Assembly (NCBI RefSeq): GCF_044324875.1 | Contig: NZ_CP172185.1 | Direction: 5' to 3' (one strand) | Source of the DNA: Escherichia coli | Lineage (GTDB): Bacteria > Pseudomonadota > Gammaproteobacteria > Enterobacterales > Enterobacteriaceae | DNA: 64,000 nt | In this document: positions 4,002 through 64,000 of the stretch, piece by piece | Layout: each line of letters starts with the position of its first letter | Position numbering within the stretch: the stretch's first letter is position 1 | The notes under the pieces: generated by a model | What the model was told of the DNA's origin: nothing | The model's input: only the letters and a program-made list of their open reading frames with translations | Database searches by the model: none | Translations under genes and position numbers: made by a program

Positions 4002-5612
4002 ATGAAAAAAATTGCTATTGTGGGTGCCGGGCCTACGGGGATCTACACCTTATTCTCGCTTCTAAAGCAACAAACTCCACTTTCTATTTCTATCTTCGAG
4101 CAGGCTGATGAAGCCGGTGTCGGGATGCCATACAGTGATGAGGAAAACTCAAAACTGATGCTGGCAAATATTGCCAGTATTGAAATACCGCCGATTTATT
4201 GTACGTATCTCGAATGGCTACAAAAGCAAGAAGCCAGCCATCTCCAGCGTTATGGCGTCAAAAAAGAAACCTTGCACGATCGTCAGTTTTTACCGCGAAT
4301 TCTGCTGGGCGAATATTTCCGCGATCAATTTTTACGATTAGTAGACCAGGCACGACAGCAAAAATTTGCGGTGGCTGTTTATGAATCATGCCAGGTTACC
4401 GATCTGCAAATTACAAATGCTGGCGTCATGCTCGCTACAAATCAGGATTTACCCAGCGAGACGTTTGATTTAGCAGTGATCGCCACGGGTCACGTCTGGC
4501 CTGATGAAGAAAAAGTAACCAGAACGTACTTTCCCAGCCCGTGGTCAGGCCTGATGGAAGCAAAGGTCGATGCGTGTAACGTGGGTATTATGGGAACATC
4601 CTTGAGCGGACTGGATGCGGCAATGGCAGTGGCTATTCAGCATGGTTCGTTCATTGAAGATGATAAACAACACGTCATTTTTCACCGCGATAACGCAAGT
4701 GAAAAGCTAAATATTACGTTAATGTCGCGCACAGGTATTTTACCCGAAGCCGATTTCTATTGCCCTATTCCCTACGAGCCCTTACACATCGTCACTGATC
4801 AGGCATTAAATGCTGAGATTCAAAAAGGCGAATATGGCCTTTTGGATCGGGTATTTAGATTGATAGTAGAGGAAATCAAGTTTGCTGATCCAGGCTGGAG
4901 CCAACGCATAGCCTTAGAGAGCCTGAATGTCGATTCCTTTGCTCAAGCCTGGTTTGCCGAGCGCAAACAACGCGCCCCATTCGACTGGGCAGAAAAAAAT
5001 CTCCAGGAAGTCGAACGCAATAAACGAGAAAAACATACTGTTCCCTGGCGTTATGTCATTCTGCGCCTGCATGAAGCAGTACAGGAAATTGTTCCACATC
5101 TGAATGAACACGACCATAAACGGTTCAGTAAAGGCCTTGCCCGGGTTTTCATCGATAATTATGCGGCAATCCCTTCAGAGTCTATTCGTCGACTACTGGC
5201 CTTACGTGAAGCGGGAATCATTCATATTCTCGCCCTCGGTGAAGACTACGAAATGGAAATTAATGAGTCGCGCACCGTCCTGAAAACGGAAGACAATAGC
5301 TACTCGTTTGACGTTTTTATTGATGCCCGCGGGCAGCGTCCGCTTAAAGTGAAAGATATTCCTTTCCCTGGACTACGCGAACAATTACAGAAAACAGGGG
5401 ATGAAATCCCTGATGTTGGCGAAGATTATACGCTACAGCAACCCGAAGAAATTCGTGGGCGCGTAGCGTTCGGCGCGTTGCCCTGGTTGATGCACGACCA
5501 GCCATTCGTACAGGGACTTACGGCATGTGCAGAAATTGGTGAGGCGATGGCTCAGGCGGTCGTAAAGCCTGCATACCGTGCTCGTCGGCGTCTTTCGTTT
5601 AATCAAATGTAA
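4002..5612 (+). CDS. ydhS: FAD/NAD(P)-binding protein
   Basis: 536-aa ORF; N-terminal IAIVGAGPTGIY dinucleotide-binding motif. Confidence 0.8.
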   Translation: MKKIAIVGAGPTGIYTLFSLLKQQTPLSISIFEQADEAGVGMPYSDEENSKLMLANIASIEIPPIYCTYLEWLQKQEASHLQRYGVKKETLHDRQFLPRILLGEYFRDQFLRLVDQARQQKFAVAVYESCQVTDLQITNAGVMLATNQDLPSETFDLAVIATGHVWPDEEKVTRTYFPSPWSGLMEAKVDACNVGIMGTSLSGLDAAMAVAIQHGSFIEDDKQHVIFHRDNASEKLNITLMSRTGILPEADFYCPIPYEPLHIVTDQALNAEIQKGEYGLLDRVFRLIVEEIKFADPGWSQRIALESLNVDSFAQAWFAERKQRAPFDWAEKNLQEVERNKREKHTVPWRYVILRLHEAVQEIVPHLNEHDHKRFSKGLARVFIDNYAAIPSESIRRLLALREAGIIHILALGEDYEMEINESRTVLKTEDNSYSFDVFIDARGQRPLKVKDIPFPGLREQLQKTGDEIPDVGEDYTLQQPEEIRGRVAFGALPWLMHDQPFVQGLTACAEIGEAMAQAVVKPAYRARRRLSFNQM

Positions 5613-58117: not shown

Positions 58118-60292
58118 ATGGAGTTCGTCAGAGACTGGCAAAAACCGCGCCCCGCTATCGGGCGCGAAGGCTTACCCGTACCTGAAACCGCACTGGATAC
58201 CATCCTGAAGTGTTACCGCGCGGACGAAGAGCGCGCCCTGAACGCTGAAGAGCAGGGTCATCCGCTTGCGGGCACAACCATCGGTAACGCGATCGACAAG
58301 TGGGAAGGCGCACAGGAGCGCCAGGAAGAGGCCATCACGCTCACACAGGAAGCGAAGAGACGCCCACCCACCCTCATTGAGGAAACCCTCAAAGAGCTGG
58401 ACACCCTGCCAAAGTGGTTGAGGCTGCCACTGATTAAGTACCTGAACTTCTTAAGGCGCAAACAGGAGGACGAACAGCAGAAAGGCAAGCGCGGCAAGGA
58501 CACCCGCAAATATGAGCGCTTCCTGAAAAACGGCATCCCCGCACGTCTTCGCCGTATTCGTGAGATTAACGCTCGCTTTGCACCGTTAAGTTTTCAGGCC
58601 GCTGCCATGCGCGAGAGTCTGGAAGAGTTAATCACACTGCCGAACCTGAGCCGTGAACGCATCCAGAAAATAGCCGTACTGCTTGCCAGCGCCGTTAAAA
58701 TGCATCTTGCCGACGCAATGGACAAGGCCCGCGAAATAACAGGGAACGACAAAGACGACAACCTGAACAACTGGCTGATTGCCTACCAGTATATTGGTCG
58801 CCGTGTCCTGAAGCTGGGGATCACCCCACCATACTGGAGCGCCCTTGAACTCCGTCCCGACCGCAGAAGCCCCCCGGACCTGACACTGGTACCGGGCGCT
58901 GTTTTGCGCCTGAACGACGCCGAATGGTGGAATAAAAAACTTCGCCAGATGCACGACGTCTGGCGTGAGGAACTTTTACGTGCAGCGGGCCTTGTATCCC
59001 GCCAGACCTCCATTTATGTGAGCCGGGAAGCGCTGGCAGACTTCCGCGAGAAACAGGCCCGTACCCGCGATTTTCTCAAAGCGCACGACGTGGAGAACGA
59101 AGACGGCGAACGCATCAGCCTGGAAGATATCTACTACGCCAGTACATCCAACCCGCATAACCGCCGCAACGAGATGATGGCGTGCGTCAAGGGAATGGAG
59201 CTTATCGCACAGGAACGTGGCGACGTGGCCTTCTTCGTCACGGTCACAGCCCCGTCTCGTTTTCACAGCGTCACCGACGCCGGTACCCTTAACCCGAAAT
59301 ACAAAGGCACAACAGTAAAAGACGCCAGCGACTATCTGGTTTATAACTTCTTCGCCTCCGCCCGCAAACTCATCAAAAAAGAGAAGCGGGGCTGGTACGG
59401 CATTCGCACCGTGGAGCCTCACCACGACGGCACGCCCCACTGGCACATGCTGGTATTCACAAGCCCCGAGAACGAAGCGCGCATCACGGAAATCATGTGC
59501 AATGCCGCCATCCGTGAAGACCGTGCAGAGCTGGGCGACGACATTACCCCGCGCTTCAAGTGCGAGAAGATAGACCCCGAAAAAGGTACGCCAACCAGCT
59601 ACATCGCCACCTACATCGGCAAAGGCATTGACGCCGCCGCATTCGGCGACACGGATCCCAAAACAGGCAAACCGCCCGTTGACCACGAAAGCGGAAAACC
59701 TATGGCGGACACCGTGGAAAACGCCGTCGCCTGGGCACGCCTGCATCGCATTCGCCAGTTCCAGTTCTTTGGCCTTCCCTCACGTCAGGTGTGGCGCGAG
59801 TTCCGCCGCCTTGCCGGACAAATGGCACGCAACCCGAAGGGGCCGCAGGCACTGACCAACCCCAAAGCCGACGCCCTCCTTGTTGCAGCCGATACGGGGT
59901 GTTTTGCCAGCTACATCATGCATCAGGGCGGTGTGCTCATTCCCCGCAGTGAATATCTGGCCCGCACGGCCTACGTCACCGCAGAAGAGCCGAACAACTA
60001 CGGCGAGTTCCCCGACCGTATTTACGGTGTACGGATGCCGGAACTGGGCGATGAGTTCACGTTATGTACCCACCCGGAAGAGTGGAAAATCGTCAGAAAG
60101 GAACCGGAACCAGACAACCGCACGGGCGAGGGTTTTGACCTTCAGGGCGACCCCGTCGCCCCTTGGACTCGTGGCAATAACTGTCACCCTGACGAAAAAA
60201 ACAACCAACAACAGCACACAAACAGAACAGTCAGAGTGGGCAAAACTGCCCCCCTTACCCCCATCGTCGGACGGTTTTGTGAGCTGGTTTAA
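58118..60292 (+). CDS. replication initiation endonuclease (P2 gpA / 186 A family, rolling-circle)
   Basis: 724-aa ORF with caggagg RBS; HDGTPHWHMLVF metal-binding motif and YIATYIGKG active-site tyrosine region. Confidence 0.85.
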   Translation: MEFVRDWQKPRPAIGREGLPVPETALDTILKCYRADEERALNAEEQGHPLAGTTIGNAIDKWEGAQERQEEAITLTQEAKRRPPTLIEETLKELDTLPKWLRLPLIKYLNFLRRKQEDEQQKGKRGKDTRKYERFLKNGIPARLRRIREINARFAPLSFQAAAMRESLEELITLPNLSRERIQKIAVLLASAVKMHLADAMDKAREITGNDKDDNLNNWLIAYQYIGRRVLKLGITPPYWSALELRPDRRSPPDLTLVPGAVLRLNDAEWWNKKLRQMHDVWREELLRAAGLVSRQTSIYVSREALADFREKQARTRDFLKAHDVENEDGERISLEDIYYASTSNPHNRRNEMMACVKGMELIAQERGDVAFFVTVTAPSRFHSVTDAGTLNPKYKGTTVKDASDYLVYNFFASARKLIKKEKRGWYGIRTVEPHHDGTPHWHMLVFTSPENEARITEIMCNAAIREDRAELGDDITPRFKCEKIDPEKGTPTSYIATYIGKGIDAAAFGDTDPKTGKPPVDHESGKPMADTVENAVAWARLHRIRQFQFFGLPSRQVWREFRRLAGQMARNPKGPQALTNPKADALLVAADTGCFASYIMHQGGVLIPRSEYLARTAYVTAEEPNNYGEFPDRIYGVRMPELGDEFTLCTHPEEWKIVRKEPEPDNRTGEGFDLQGDPVAPWTRGNNCHPDEKNNQQQHTNRTVRVGKTAPLTPIVGRFCELV

Positions 60293-61278: not shown

Positions 61279-61856
61279 AAAAAAGAGACCTTAAAAAACA
61301 CCTCCGTAGTCAGATTGAATATTTTGAAGATAAGGCTGCAAAAACAGGGCTTTCCGGTAAAGAGAACATGAACTTCAGGGCACACCTCCTGACGTGGAGA
61401 ATACTTAATATCACGAGAGATGGACTTGAGCCGCTAGCCTACCTGATGGAAGATGGCGAGACCCTCATACAGGATCCCAATGTGGAAATGGAGAAGAAAG
61501 AGATGGACCTGCCGATAATCGGGCTGTTTGAGATCCCTGAACTAATAGGACGTTATGAACACGAAAACCGCCAGCTTGCCGCCTTTTTATCCGTGACAAT
61601 CGAACGACTGGAAGCCGTGAAACACGATATTCCGTTCGGTTTTGATGAGCGCACCGAGGGTGATTTGCTCAGCTTTCAGATTGCCCTGAACGTGCTCACC
61701 GCAGAGCCTTCTGCGTGGCTACGCCCGGAACGGCACCACAACACGTTCGCATTTACCGTAATTCCCTACGATGCCGCACAGGAAGAGGATAACTTCGAGA
61801 CCAGGCTTGTTCCCCTGTATCAGATTGCGGATTTCTATACGTTGATTCGCTGGTAA
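61275..61856 (+). CDS. hypothetical protein, last gene of the coupled block
   Basis: 193-aa ORF followed by a strong terminator. Confidence 0.55.
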   Translation: MKKRDLKKHLRSQIEYFEDKAAKTGLSGKENMNFRAHLLTWRILNITRDGLEPLAYLMEDGETLIQDPNVEMEKKEMDLPIIGLFEIPELIGRYEHENRQLAAFLSVTIERLEAVKHDIPFGFDERTEGDLLSFQIALNVLTAEPSAWLRPERHHNTFAFTVIPYDAAQEEDNFETRLVPLYQIADFYTLIRW

Positions 61857-61870
61857 TCCCCCACAGTAAA

Positions 61871-61895
61871 ACAGCCCGACCGGGCTGTTTTTTTA
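61871..61895 (+). terminator. rho-independent terminator ending the early/replication operon
   Basis: acagcccg ac cgggctgt followed by ttttttt. Confidence 0.8.
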
Positions 61896-61951
61896 TCTGA
61901 TATTTTTGATAACGTTGACCGGCTCATTAGCAAAAAAGCAAAGAGGAAAAC

Positions 61952-62338
61952 ATGAAAGCCCGTATCGGGATCATCCCGGAAAAAGCCCTGCGCCAGCACC
62001 TGATTGATATTGCCAGAGGGAAGCGAAAACCACAGCCCGACGAGCCAAAGGTATGGTTTTCATCCATCAATGCGGCAGGCCAGACGCTGAGCAATGAAAA
62101 TATCGCCCTTCTGCGTCTTATGAATGAGGAGAAGCCGCAGACCATGACCGCACTTGCGGAGTTATCCGGCAGAAAACTGAGCAACCTGTCTGTAACCCTG
62201 AAAATGCTGAGCAGCTACGGTTTTGTCAGTCTGGAAAAGAAAGGGAATACTGTACACCCGAAAGCACTTTTTACCGATTTTGAAATCATCGTTGATCCGT
62301 CCGTGGGTTCAGTACATCGCGCCACCGCCCGGCCCTGA
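61952..62338 (+). CDS. putative winged-helix transcriptional regulator
   Basis: 128-aa ORF with aagagga RBS; HTH-like segment MTALAELSGRKLSNLSVTLKMLSSYGFVS. Confidence 0.55.
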   Translation: MKARIGIIPEKALRQHLIDIARGKRKPQPDEPKVWFSSINAAGQTLSNENIALLRLMNEEKPQTMTALAELSGRKLSNLSVTLKMLSSYGFVSLEKKGNTVHPKALFTDFEIIVDPSVGSVHRATARP

Positions 62339-62350
62339 AGTGCGCAATAA

Positions 62351-62375
62351 ACAGCCCCGTTCGGGGCTGTTATTT
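62351..62375. terminator. bidirectional terminator between convergent genes
   Basis: acagcccc gttc ggggctgt with T-rich flanks on both strands. Confidence 0.7.
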
Positions 62376-62748
62376 ATTCCAGAATCAGCTGTTCAGGTGT
62401 GCAGCCGTACAGTCTGGCAAGGCGCTCAATATTTGCCCTGCGCGGGCGTTCCGTTCTTTCGAATTCGGACACGGTAGCCTGCCTGATACCCAGCGCATCC
62501 GCCACCTGCTTTTGCGTCATTCCGCGATAGATTCGCCACGCCGCCTGCATTGTGCAGCCACGCTCCGAGAGAATGTTAACCACCTCGTTGGGATACAGCG
62601 TATCAGGCGATGCACACGGTTCGTTCTGGACGTCCTCGTAGAGTTCGTCAAGGTCGCTGTCTCCTGCCAGTTTTTCAAACAACGCCACTGGCAGAATGAC
62701 GGACACCCTGTTACCCGCACCGTCAGTAATAAACTGAATCTGACTCAT
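62374..62748 (-). CDS. HigA-like antitoxin (XRE-family HTH at C-terminus)
   Basis: 124-aa ORF with aggaggg RBS; C-terminal MTQKQVADALGIRQATVSEFERT HTH. Confidence 0.65.
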   Translation of the reverse strand: MSQIQFITDGAGNRVSVILPVALFEKLAGDSDLDELYEDVQNEPCASPDTLYPNEVVNILSERGCTMQAAWRIYRGMTQKQVADALGIRQATVSEFERTERPRRANIERLARLYGCTPEQLILE

Positions 62749-62802
62749 TTACCCCTCCTGCTAAACATCGGTTTATTTTTTAATTTGCTGCCGGTGATAA
62801 AA

Positions 62803-62821
62803 AACGGCGGGTCGCCCCGCC
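62803..62821 (-). terminator. intrinsic-terminator-like hairpin between toxin and antitoxin ORFs
   Basis: Minus strand reads taa-ggcggg gcga cccgcc-GTTTTTT immediately after the toxin stop. Confidence 0.5.
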
Positions 62822-63073
62822 TTAGTATGTTGTCGAGGTTCTCCGCTGAATACGGAGGATCCTGATAACCACTATCTGCCCTCCCTCAATCGTGAACCTG
62901 ACACGGTAATGATTTACCCTGAGTCTGTACTCCCCGCCCGAGTCAGTGAGCTTTTTAATATCCAGATTCTGGAACTTCGGATAGCCATAAAGCGCGTTAA
63001 CTTTCTCGCGTAAGGATTTCTGATCCCTCGCTGGCAAAACCCGTAAATCTTTGATTGCCCGAGGGGTCCACAT
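62822..63073 (-). CDS. RelE/ParE-superfamily toxin (HigB-like)
   Basis: ...KKLTDSGGEYRLRVNHYRVRFTIEGGQIVVIRILRIQRR pattern; start may be 63073 (MWTPRAIKDL) or 63094. Confidence 0.65.
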   Translation of the reverse strand: MWTPRAIKDLRVLPARDQKSLREKVNALYGYPKFQNLDIKKLTDSGGEYRLRVNHYRVRFTIEGGQIVVIRILRIQRRTSTTY

Positions 63074-63139
63074 GATTTCAGTCGTCATAAACACACCGGA
63101 AGCAAATTATTAAAGAGCCGTGCCCGCTGGCACACCTTA

Positions 63140-63183
63140 AATATAGGTTTTAACCCCTATATTGTCAAACAAAATCCCTATAT
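63140..63183. promoter_or_regulatory. repeat cluster upstream of the toxin gene, putative operator
   Basis: Inverted repeat AATATAGG-n8-CCTATATT plus a third CCCTATAT copy 13 bp further. Confidence 0.45.
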
Positions 63184-63677
63184 CATGAAGTAAAAAAGCA
63201 CCTCCCGCGACCTCCCTTTCCGGTGCACGAAAGTGCACAAATTTGCACAATTTTTTTGAACGACTTTTTGCCCTTCCGGCCCGTGTGGCGTCTGGATCCG
63301 TCGGGGATCCGTGCGTGCACGAAAAAAGGCCTTTTTCTGCGCGCAGGTGACGGGGGAACAGCCCGCGTTTCAGGGGGTAAATAGCATTCCCTGAACGATG
63401 TTGCAGTGACACAACAGAATGGCTGTATTTCTCACGCTGAGCGTGAAAAAGACGTAAGGGCTTTTGATTTGATGGGGTGAAAGATAAGGCCGTCAAAATC
63501 GCACTGAGGCAGCGAGAATATGTCGTCAGAGTTGCGGGGTTGCGTAAGCATCCGCCCGGCGATGATGGCTACAGGGCTGGAGATGTTGTGAAATTATCTG
63601 AAGGAATAACCAGCTTGCAGGAGAACCCGGGCAAAGTCAGAATAGCGGCAGGCATCAACTCAAAAGAGGATAATGTC

Positions 63678-64000
63678 ATGAGCCACTTTAATGATTTATG
63701 CCAGATCAATCGTGAAGCTGAAGAAAAACGCGCTGAGGCAGCTCAAATTTTGCGGGATGAAGCGGCAAGGCTGATTGATTTCTATGAAGAATGGCTGGGG
63801 CTTCCATCCATGTACTGGGAAGACGATGATGGCGACCTGCACCGCTACGTGGAGACAGGCTTGCCATGTAAGACAGCGGCGGATTTTAGTCCTCTTTCAG
63901 TCCACAATATCGCATCTGCACCAGACAATATTTTCCGCATGGCCGTGCGAACCTGGGTTAAGTCATCTGACAGCAGCTACCCGGTAAGCGTGGTTATTGC
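63678..64000 (+). CDS. hypothetical protein, 5' part only (runs off window end)
   Basis: ATG at 63678 with aaagagga RBS; frame open to 64000. Not in the ORF track because no stop is reached; in-frame GTG/TTG alternatives up to 63477. Confidence 0.5.
   Translation, partial: MSHFNDLCQINREAEEKRAEAAQILRDEAARLIDFYEEWLGLPSMYWEDDDGDLHRYVETGLPCKTAADFSPLSVHNIASAPDNIFRMAVRTWVKSSDSSYPVSVVI

Follow-up and report, generated by a model that had tools for sequence, protein, structure and literature searches.

A putative P88-type cos packaging region and an inserted single-gene cassette beside the portal gene of a P2-family prophage in Escherichia coli

What lies between the last cargo gene and the portal gene of a P2-family prophage, and does the noncoding DNA found there belong to the gene that follows it? 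The question is raised by the end of a 64,000-nucleotide (nt) stretch of Escherichia coli contig NZ_CP172185.1 (assembly GCF_044324875.1; hereafter, the window), which is occupied by a P2-family, P88-like prophage (Xuanwuvirus, Peduoviridae). Here, the promoter of a toxin-antitoxin (TA) pair is followed by about 500 bp of repeat-rich DNA and by an open reading frame (ORF), called orfX below, that runs past the last base of the window. An earlier note on this DNA had described these features and interpreted them as an accessory island continuing beyond the window, in which a leader precedes an ORF at the position where P2-like phages carry tin, old, or other defense cargo. Its observations are confirmed: no credible or annotated gene was found between 63095 and 63677, the repeats are all present (TGCAC boxes at 63224, 63234, 63244, and 63316; GGATCCGT at 63294-63301 and 63305-63312), and orfX starts at 63678. 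Its interpretation is partly supported. Taken jointly, the results described here make it probable that 63224-63601 is a P88-type cos packaging region and that 63602 to ∼64190 is an inserted cassette with a single accessory gene.

We compared the last 901 bases of the window (query start at 63100, with query positions 125 to 502 equal to window positions 63224-63601) with 5426 complete E. coli genomes, the set behind all block and allele counts in complete genomes given below. Matches of ∼88% identity to 63224-63601, a block of ∼380 bp, were present in 1101 genomes, with nothing annotated there. Homology to all ∼1100 E. coli matches and to all phage matches started at 63224, and the cargo upstream of this position was unrelated among copies: P88 and an ST131 prophage have ParM and partition genes, the window has the TA pair, and others differ again. 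The block was also found in P88, P88_4B11, Citrobacter phage Shae_phiSM, and other Xuanwuvirus records, and its first 145 nt matched an Enterobacter Novemvirus. Compared to P88, nucleotide identity was 87.6% in the block versus 81% in the neighboring portal gene. Scanning IMG/VR for exact copies of the conserved 16-mer GCGCAGGTGACGGGGG yielded ∼110 peduovirus loci, whose portal proteins were 65 to 99% identical to that of the window prophage. Among the 100 IMG/VR loci with a portal C terminus, 90 had the 16-mer 207 to 337 nt from the portal stop codon and nothing between, and in P88 and P88_4B11 the block runs directly into the portal terminator, followed by the portal gene. The block, thus placed between the cargo side and the portal 3′ end, has the same arrangement as cos in P2 and 186. 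Since ∼90% of the copies in related phages lack the ORF and abut the portal gene, and since the block is more conserved than the portal gene, we regard it as a constrained phage element and not, as had been proposed, as a leader of orfX. In one IMG/VR copy (L111, at approximately position 5589), an internal deletion has fused the second TGCAC box to the fourth, and the adjacent portal gene shows only 30% identity; this copy may represent a degenerate or recombinant cos.

The internal organization of the block resembles that of characterized cos sites. The mapped cohesive ends of P2 and 186 fall in the same interval, between the old/orf97 cargo and the portal terminator (the cos sites of P2, 186, and P4 are those of Ziermann and Calendar 1990, as cited in PMC9594776 and PMC9122126). 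At their right ends, P2, 186, and P4 share a layout of three TGCAT boxes with ∼10- to 12-bp spacing, a GC-rich dyad (CCGCGCCATTCCCGGCGCGGTCTGAG in P4), a fourth TGCAT, TAAAACC (TGCATTAAAACC), a short hairpin, the 19-nt cohesive end, and (T/C)GCGCGC. The order in the window matches: three TGCAC boxes, a T-run with CCCTTCCGGCCC, the GC dyad (a GGATCC pair), a fourth TGCAC with an A-run, and TGCGCGCAGGTGACGGGGG, the counterpart of TGCGCGCTGACGG in P2 and TGCGCGCCAGAGG in 186, which directly follow the cohesive ends there. Exactly three tandem boxes were present in 70 of 100 distinct homologous blocks, and four in 9 more. Because the raw TGCACRA count over the whole window (7 found versus 4.5 expected) was not significant by itself, the weight of the boxes lies in their tandem phasing and conservation; they may be bound by the phage packaging enzyme. 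The GGATCCGT pair is kept only in the E. coli/Citrobacter lineage, and other lineages have at this position the GC palindrome GGCGCGGTCTGAGGCCGG, which resembles CCGGCGCGGTCTGAG of P4. Likewise, the commonest E. coli-lineage variant of the palindrome AAAAAGGCCTTTTT is AAAAAACGCGTTTTTT (e.g., in L013), with a changed center and preserved symmetry, and the segment from the fourth box to GCGCAGG has a constant length of 24 to 26 nt across lineages and a variable sequence.

Position and element order are features common to the block and the P2, 186, and P4 cos sites, and its occurrence in small integrative elements devoid of packaging genes may be another. There are also clear differences: the ∼38 nt taken up in P2 by hairpin and cohesive end correspond to ∼12 to 17 nt in the P88 type, which in the window lineage form an A5-GGCC-T5 palindrome; TGCAC replaces TGCAT in the boxes; and the conserved tract extends ∼220 bp further toward the portal gene. 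The lambda cos site (cosN plus cosB) is comparable in its proposed logic, in which protein-binding repeats lie alongside a symmetric site of cutting, near head and packaging genes. This is an analogy only, since lambda shows no sequence relationship and has another terminase family and gene order.

The ∼160 bp from the first TGCAC box to GGGGGTAAAT (63224 to ∼63383) recur outside complete phages. Several ∼11-kb integrative elements in IMG/VR (L026, identical to L142; L143; L144; L145; and the more distant L122) carry genes for a P4-like integrase, a repressor, a primase of 897 aa, and another integrase-like protein before the block, and after it a 236-aa coiled-coil ORF and their own homologue of the P2-family major capsid protein, 33 to 36% identical to that of the helper. 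They end ∼1 kb past the capsid gene, and no portal, terminase, scaffold, head-completion, psu, sid, or delta gene was found in them. L026 and the window are colinear over these ∼160 bp and then diverge; the remaining part of the block (63384-63601) aligned neither to other genera nor to the satellite-like elements. Sharing of the core alone by elements devoid of portal and terminase genes parallels P2 and P4, which share essentially only the cos region of ∼55 bp (PMC9594776, PMC9122126). We therefore propose that the shared stretch would be the functional core of cos, and the elements resemble satellites, of a family supplying a capsid protein of its own.

Position, conservation, an element order like that of P2, 186, and P4, and an upstream cargo that varies while the block stays constant all argue for a cos site, which is most likely the role of the block. 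It lies between the cargo that follows the replication gene and the portal 3′ end, and its flanking architecture is that of cos in the P2 family. After excision and replication, the terminase (homologues of P2 gpM and gpP) would recognize the block on circular DNA, probably via the phased TGCAC boxes and the dyad elements, and staggered nicks somewhere within ∼63269-63356 would create the ends of virion DNA. The cut could be located in the palindrome, in the conserved 19-mer at 63338-63356, or further to the left.

Several observations weigh against this assignment. The 19-nt cohesive end GGCG(A/T)GGCGGGGAAAGCA(C/T) was absent from the window even when 3 mismatches were allowed, and exact matches to it were confined to the P2, 186, and P4 loci, with 0 in P88-type loci. 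Consequently, homology to the characterized sites is architectural and does not extend to sequence identity across the cut site. In line with this, a BLAST search of phage records with the P2 cos core gave 107 matching records, none with an organism name that begins with Xuanwuvirus or Citrobacter, and no other P88-type record was among the 60 of the 107 that were listed. We found no experimentally mapped virion end for P88-type phages. Of the linear records, P88_4B11 alone begins within the block, at a position equivalent to 63269, and its first nucleotide was picked "relative to reference genomes" and not experimentally (PMC6969025). Ends of IMG/VR contigs scattered from approximately −77 to approximately +180 nt around the 16-mer (e.g., L030, L102, L064, and L073) and were uninformative; they are probably assembly breaks at repeated sequence. 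A second phage-database search, with the block of another lineage, revealed no record ending within the block. The P88 genome paper does not discuss cos, and the literature searched contained no description of cos in P88-like prophages. Finally, the satellite status of the ∼11-kb elements is read from their gene content.

Three other explanations of the block were weighed. In favor of a 5′ leader, promoter region, or structured noncoding RNA serving orfX, as in retron or defense reverse transcriptase loci, the block immediately precedes the ORF in its reading direction, has hairpins and repeats, and contains a frame that is open from 63477 into orfX. Yet most copies have no ORF behind them, the cassette brings its own 76-nt upstream segment with a Shine-Dalgarno sequence, an Rfam scan of both strands of 61500-64000 gave 0 matches at an E value of ≤1, and the ORF encodes neither a reverse transcriptase nor a known defense protein, so that we consider a leader extremely improbable. 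The TGCAC repeats might instead be iterons of a parC-like centromere, serving the ParM/ParR-type partition genes found shortly upstream in many P88-like phages, or of a replication or regulatory site. Phased 10-bp direct repeats are typical of centromeres, and P88, the ST131 prophage, and Shae_phiSM encode ParM and a partition protein not more than 1.5 kb upstream of the block. The window prophage, however, has the block and no partition genes, satellite-like elements without ParM also have the boxes, and in P2, 186, and P4 the analogous TGCAT boxes occur without ParM beside mapped cohesive ends; a use other than packaging thus appears very improbable. According to a further explanation, the right part of the block encodes a genuine 42-aa protein (frame 63477-63602), fused here to orfX as in the RefSeq and JGI gene calls. 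This frame was open in 35 of 40 distinct copies, has a conserved stop codon in P88-type copies, and is annotated in P88 and P88_4B11. On the other hand, entropy by codon position (7.95, 10.95, and 8.27 bits) showed no excess at third positions, 5 of the 40 copies were frameshifted, the most conserved stretch had no synonymous variation and hence points to constraint at the DNA level, and the phrog_5091 profile begins at the methionine at 63678. We judge a real 42-aa protein to be highly unlikely and retain the cos site as the preferred reading of the block.

The DNA to the right of the block is a separate element. The last 901 bases were matched end to end in nine complete E. coli genomes with at least 98.9% identity, the closest being H1 (900/901; 99.9%). 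Alignment to H1 placed the stop codon of orfX at the equivalent of 64181, ∼180 bases past the window. A hairpin terminator lies 3′ of the stop, and the portal gene begins 66 bp past it on the opposite strand, in convergent orientation, followed in H1 by the large terminase gene and P2-type head genes. Instead of an island continuing beyond the window, there is one 167-aa gene and then the portal and large terminase genes; the downstream extension also identified orfX as an accessory gene and not as a conserved structural or packaging gene. No more than 12 nt separate GTGAAATTATCTGA from the downstream AGCTGGAGAGTCGGGGCATAAATTTTTTATGCCCC in P88 and P88_4B11; in the window lineage, these two sequences flank the cassette of ∼590 bp, which thus lies between the block and the portal terminator. 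The GC content of the cassette is 48%, compared to 58% in the portal gene. The cassette is not at the tin/old position, to which the ORF had been assigned: it lies across the conserved block from there, where P2, 186, and P88 have nothing.

Start codon assignment requires some care. A Shine-Dalgarno sequence (AAGAGGA, 63664-63670) and a full-length match to phrog_5091 support the ATG at 63678, as earlier suggested, whereas RefSeq calls a GTG at 63588 (197 aa) and JGI a GTG at 63477 (234 aa), both reaching into the conserved block. Public calls comprise 197-, 234-, and 236-aa forms (L001 9489; 63477-63677). The calls are too long because the cassette was inserted in frame with the 42-codon open frame; gene callers extend orfX into the block, while the family begins at the start of the 167-aa form. 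A candidate promoter (TTGCAG at 63615-63620, a 17-nt spacer, and CAGAAT at 63638-63643) was weak, with 7 of 12 matches, and fell under the scan threshold.

A second allele of orfX occurs in ST131-type prophages. Its product is 24% identical and belongs to the same PHROG, and it occupies the same slot with different junctions, from which we conclude that the two alleles were inserted independently within the same ∼100-bp interval. The ST131 cassette (L002 5455-6066 versus L004 5440-5460) sits after the terminator hairpin, replaces the last portal codons, and has its own bidirectional terminator. In IMG/VR, 2 of 100 loci had the window allele and 7 the ST131 allele in this slot, and no other gene was inserted there; in complete E. 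coli genomes, the numbers were 26 and 397, respectively. In a published table of hotspot loci, the ST131 allele (WP_000236495) is listed 167 times, and WP_024211219, which we infer to be the window allele, appears alongside three different upstream cargo sets (PMC9122126). This suggests that orfX assorts independently of the cargo across cos. In one prophage lineage (L141; NZ_CP158426.1, also NZ_LT599825.1), orfX was broken after ∼34 codons, at approximately the equivalent of 63780, by the IS21-family element ISEc12. As an interrupted copy exists, orfX is dispensable for prophage maintenance. Sequences H29 and H30, initially taken for a mosaic allele, proved to be an IS21-family insertion into orfX, and the mosaic was rejected. 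Overall, orfX is a mobile, dispensable, single-gene accessory function.

The orfX product has 167 aa, a mass of 19 kDa, and a pI of 5.4. Residues 1 to 166 aligned to positions 2 to 163 of the 164-position phrog_5091 profile (E = 3.1e-52). The window protein (E = 3e-52) and the ST131 allele (E = 1e-67) both match this family over their full lengths, and its function is unassigned, so that the match provides a name without an explanation. A profile search of 1.84 billion representatives detected 102 representative clusters, nearly all of them stand-alone proteins of 155 to 185 aa. AlphaFold modeling predicted a helix/beta-sheet/helix sandwich with high confidence (predicted local distance difference test score of 93), and we take the protein to be soluble. 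The only near-invariant residues of the family are L40, L42, W47, Y57, and F88, all of them hydrophobic or aromatic, with no conserved polar residue. Given this pattern, the predicted protein is most likely no catalyst and would work by attaching to a partner macromolecule, which may come from a competing phage, from a host defense system, or from the assembly line of the phage itself.

Database comparisons yielded little beyond the family itself. Pfam domains were found neither in orfX nor in 70 family members, PADLOC returned 0 families at an E value of ≤1, and NCBIfam returned none. A profile search of PDB sequences gave chance-level matches only and hence no relative of solved structure. 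Foldseek retrieved only uncharacterized family members from AFDB50, and nothing below an E value of 0.06 from BFVD. A hidden Markov model of the family detected no second copy in the frames of P2, 186, and P4 or in the whole window, nor did it link the family to tin, old, orf91, or orf97. The literature searched did not name the orfX protein accessions or phrog_5091. Relatives of orfX occupy slots typical of accessory genes. Some directly follow gpA, others precede a cos-like region within the hotspot or lie at the edge of the prophage behind ogr, and further ones are found between the lysis genes and gpR and in the tail operon of another myovirus. A 1449-aa protein (P0021) had eight separate matches to residues 41 to 85 of the orfX profile, so that repeats of this one small motif may make up the protein. 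An association of orfX with hicAB was seen in both of the first two informative contexts, failed in later ones, and was dropped.

What orfX does can be narrowed down less far. We consider it a putative lysogen-expressed accessory gene, and as a best guess, in which our confidence is low, its product would be an inhibitor that takes part in conflict between phages or between phage and host. Two results speak against such a defined function. The promoter scan found no strong promoter for orfX, and a distant relative (L195 4001-4480), located in the tail operon of a non-P2 myovirus, overlaps the start of a Dit-like baseplate gene by 8 nt, and this translational coupling, alone among the contexts seen, could indicate a virion-related role. 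An optional helper of virion assembly or packaging, such as a chaperone or a DNA-end-binding factor, is nevertheless unlikely for orfX: it is absent from ∼60 to 90% of P88-like phages, P88 included, its transcription converges on that of the portal operon, an insertion sequence interrupts one copy, and relatives also occur behind gpA and, at the edge of the prophage, behind ogr. The functional reading of the earlier note, a stand-alone antiphage defense or superinfection exclusion protein like tin, old, or 186 orf97, has more in its favor. Located between the replication endonuclease and portal genes, orfX falls within the gpA-gpQ interval, which is rich in validated defense systems (PMC9122126); it is present or absent among close relatives, has low GC content, and recurs at accessory slots; and 186 orf97, across cos, blocks 186 infection according to its record. 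Like P2 tin/old and 186 orf97, which are exclusion genes of lysogenic conversion beside cos, orfX is accessory, nonessential, and variable and lies near cos. It differs from them in its place on the portal side of cos, in the lack of sequence similarity (P2 orf91 included), in the absence of an ATPase or nuclease domain, and in that no phenotype has been demonstrated for it. In addition, no known defense family in PADLOC matches the ORF, neither an enzymatic or sensor domain nor conserved polar residues were found, and membership in the hotspot is by location only, with validated defense for only approximately one-third of the loci cloned in the published screen (PMC9122126). Defense is thus a possibility that we regard as doubtful, and the accessory cassette of the preferred reading, with its tentatively assigned inhibitor, is kept.

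The wider setting agrees in part with what had been supposed. The P2-family variable hotspot comprises everything between gpA and gpQ, cos included (Rousset et al. 2022, PMC9122126), and the window does contain a P2-like variable region after the replication gene; the cargo at the tin/old position, however, ends with the TA pair at 63223. In H1 (99.9% identical), the prophage integrase adjoins glsA at the opposite prophage end. The TA promoter is strong and sigma-70-like (TTGACA-17-TATATT, 11 of 12 matches; minus strand, 63168-63140, equal to L001 9069-9041) and is located upstream of the RelE-family gene. The repeats in which it is embedded, one inverted (AATATAGG/CCTATATT) and one direct (21 nt), are likely operators for autoregulation. 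Coordinates of all features are compiled in Table 1.

Table 1. Features at the end of the window, from the replication gene to the 5′ part of the orfX cassette
Feature	Position	Strand	Remarks
Replication endonuclease gene	58118-60292		
Several small ORFs	Between replication endonuclease gene and DNA-binding gene		
DNA-binding gene	61952-62338		
Helix-turn-helix antitoxin gene of TA pair	62374-62748	minus	
RelE-family toxin gene of TA pair	62822-63094	minus	
TA promoter/operator region	63140-63193	minus	Marks where the variable cargo ends
Final stretch of lineage-specific cargo DNA	63194-63223		Unrelated to other copies in the alignment
Three TGCAC(A/G)A boxes (63224, 63234, 63244)	63224-63253		Head to tail, exactly 10-bp spacing
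T-run, CCCTTCCGGCCC motif, and GC-rich dyad	63254-63315		Dyad is GGATCCGT twice, 63294-63312
Fourth TGCAC box (63316), A-run, and 14-nt palindrome AAAAAGGCCTTTTT (63323-63336)	63316-63337		
TGCGCGCAGGTGACGGGGG	63338-63356		Most conserved GC-rich 19-mer of the block
Proposed cos core	63224-63383		Stretch common to satellite-like elements
Lineage-specific remainder of the block	63384-63601		Between core and portal terminator; small hairpin at 63425-63453
Cassette, 5′ part	63602-64000	plus	Insert of ∼590 bp, to ∼64190; carries orfX
orfX coding sequence	63678-64000	plus	First 107 of 167 codons; complete gene read in L001 9579-10082

The novelty of these findings is modest. New here are a cos variant without the classical cohesive end, satellite-like elements sharing it, and an uncharacterized protein family; they are unsurprising in kind and refine known P2-family biology. 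Still, the block is an unannotated element of ∼380 bp present in one-fifth of complete E. coli genomes, and surveys of the gpA-gpQ interval mix two compartments divided by cos, of which the one on the portal side holds only one gene family. Two phage pairs, PV340563/PV340564 (PhiR44_1/PhiR44_2) and ON470601/ON470599 (569R9/569R5), comprised one P2-type and one P88-type cos each; the name prefixes within the pairs suggest a common source strain, in which case both packaging classes coexist in single hosts.

A P88-like cos that differs from the P2/P4 site at the cut region bears on which satellites are mobilized and on the design of P2/P4-style transducing particles. Tentatively, and with less confidence than we place in the cos site and cassette themselves, the P88-type cos might constitute a second packaging-specificity class of the P2 family that separates helper-satellite networks, and orfX might, separately, be a new single-protein inhibitor in phage conflict. 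If this holds true, P88-like phages, found in ∼20% of sequenced E. coli, would not serve the classical P4-type cos, and satellites of ∼11 kb with a P88-type cos core and a diverged P2-family capsid gene would exploit P88-like phages instead.

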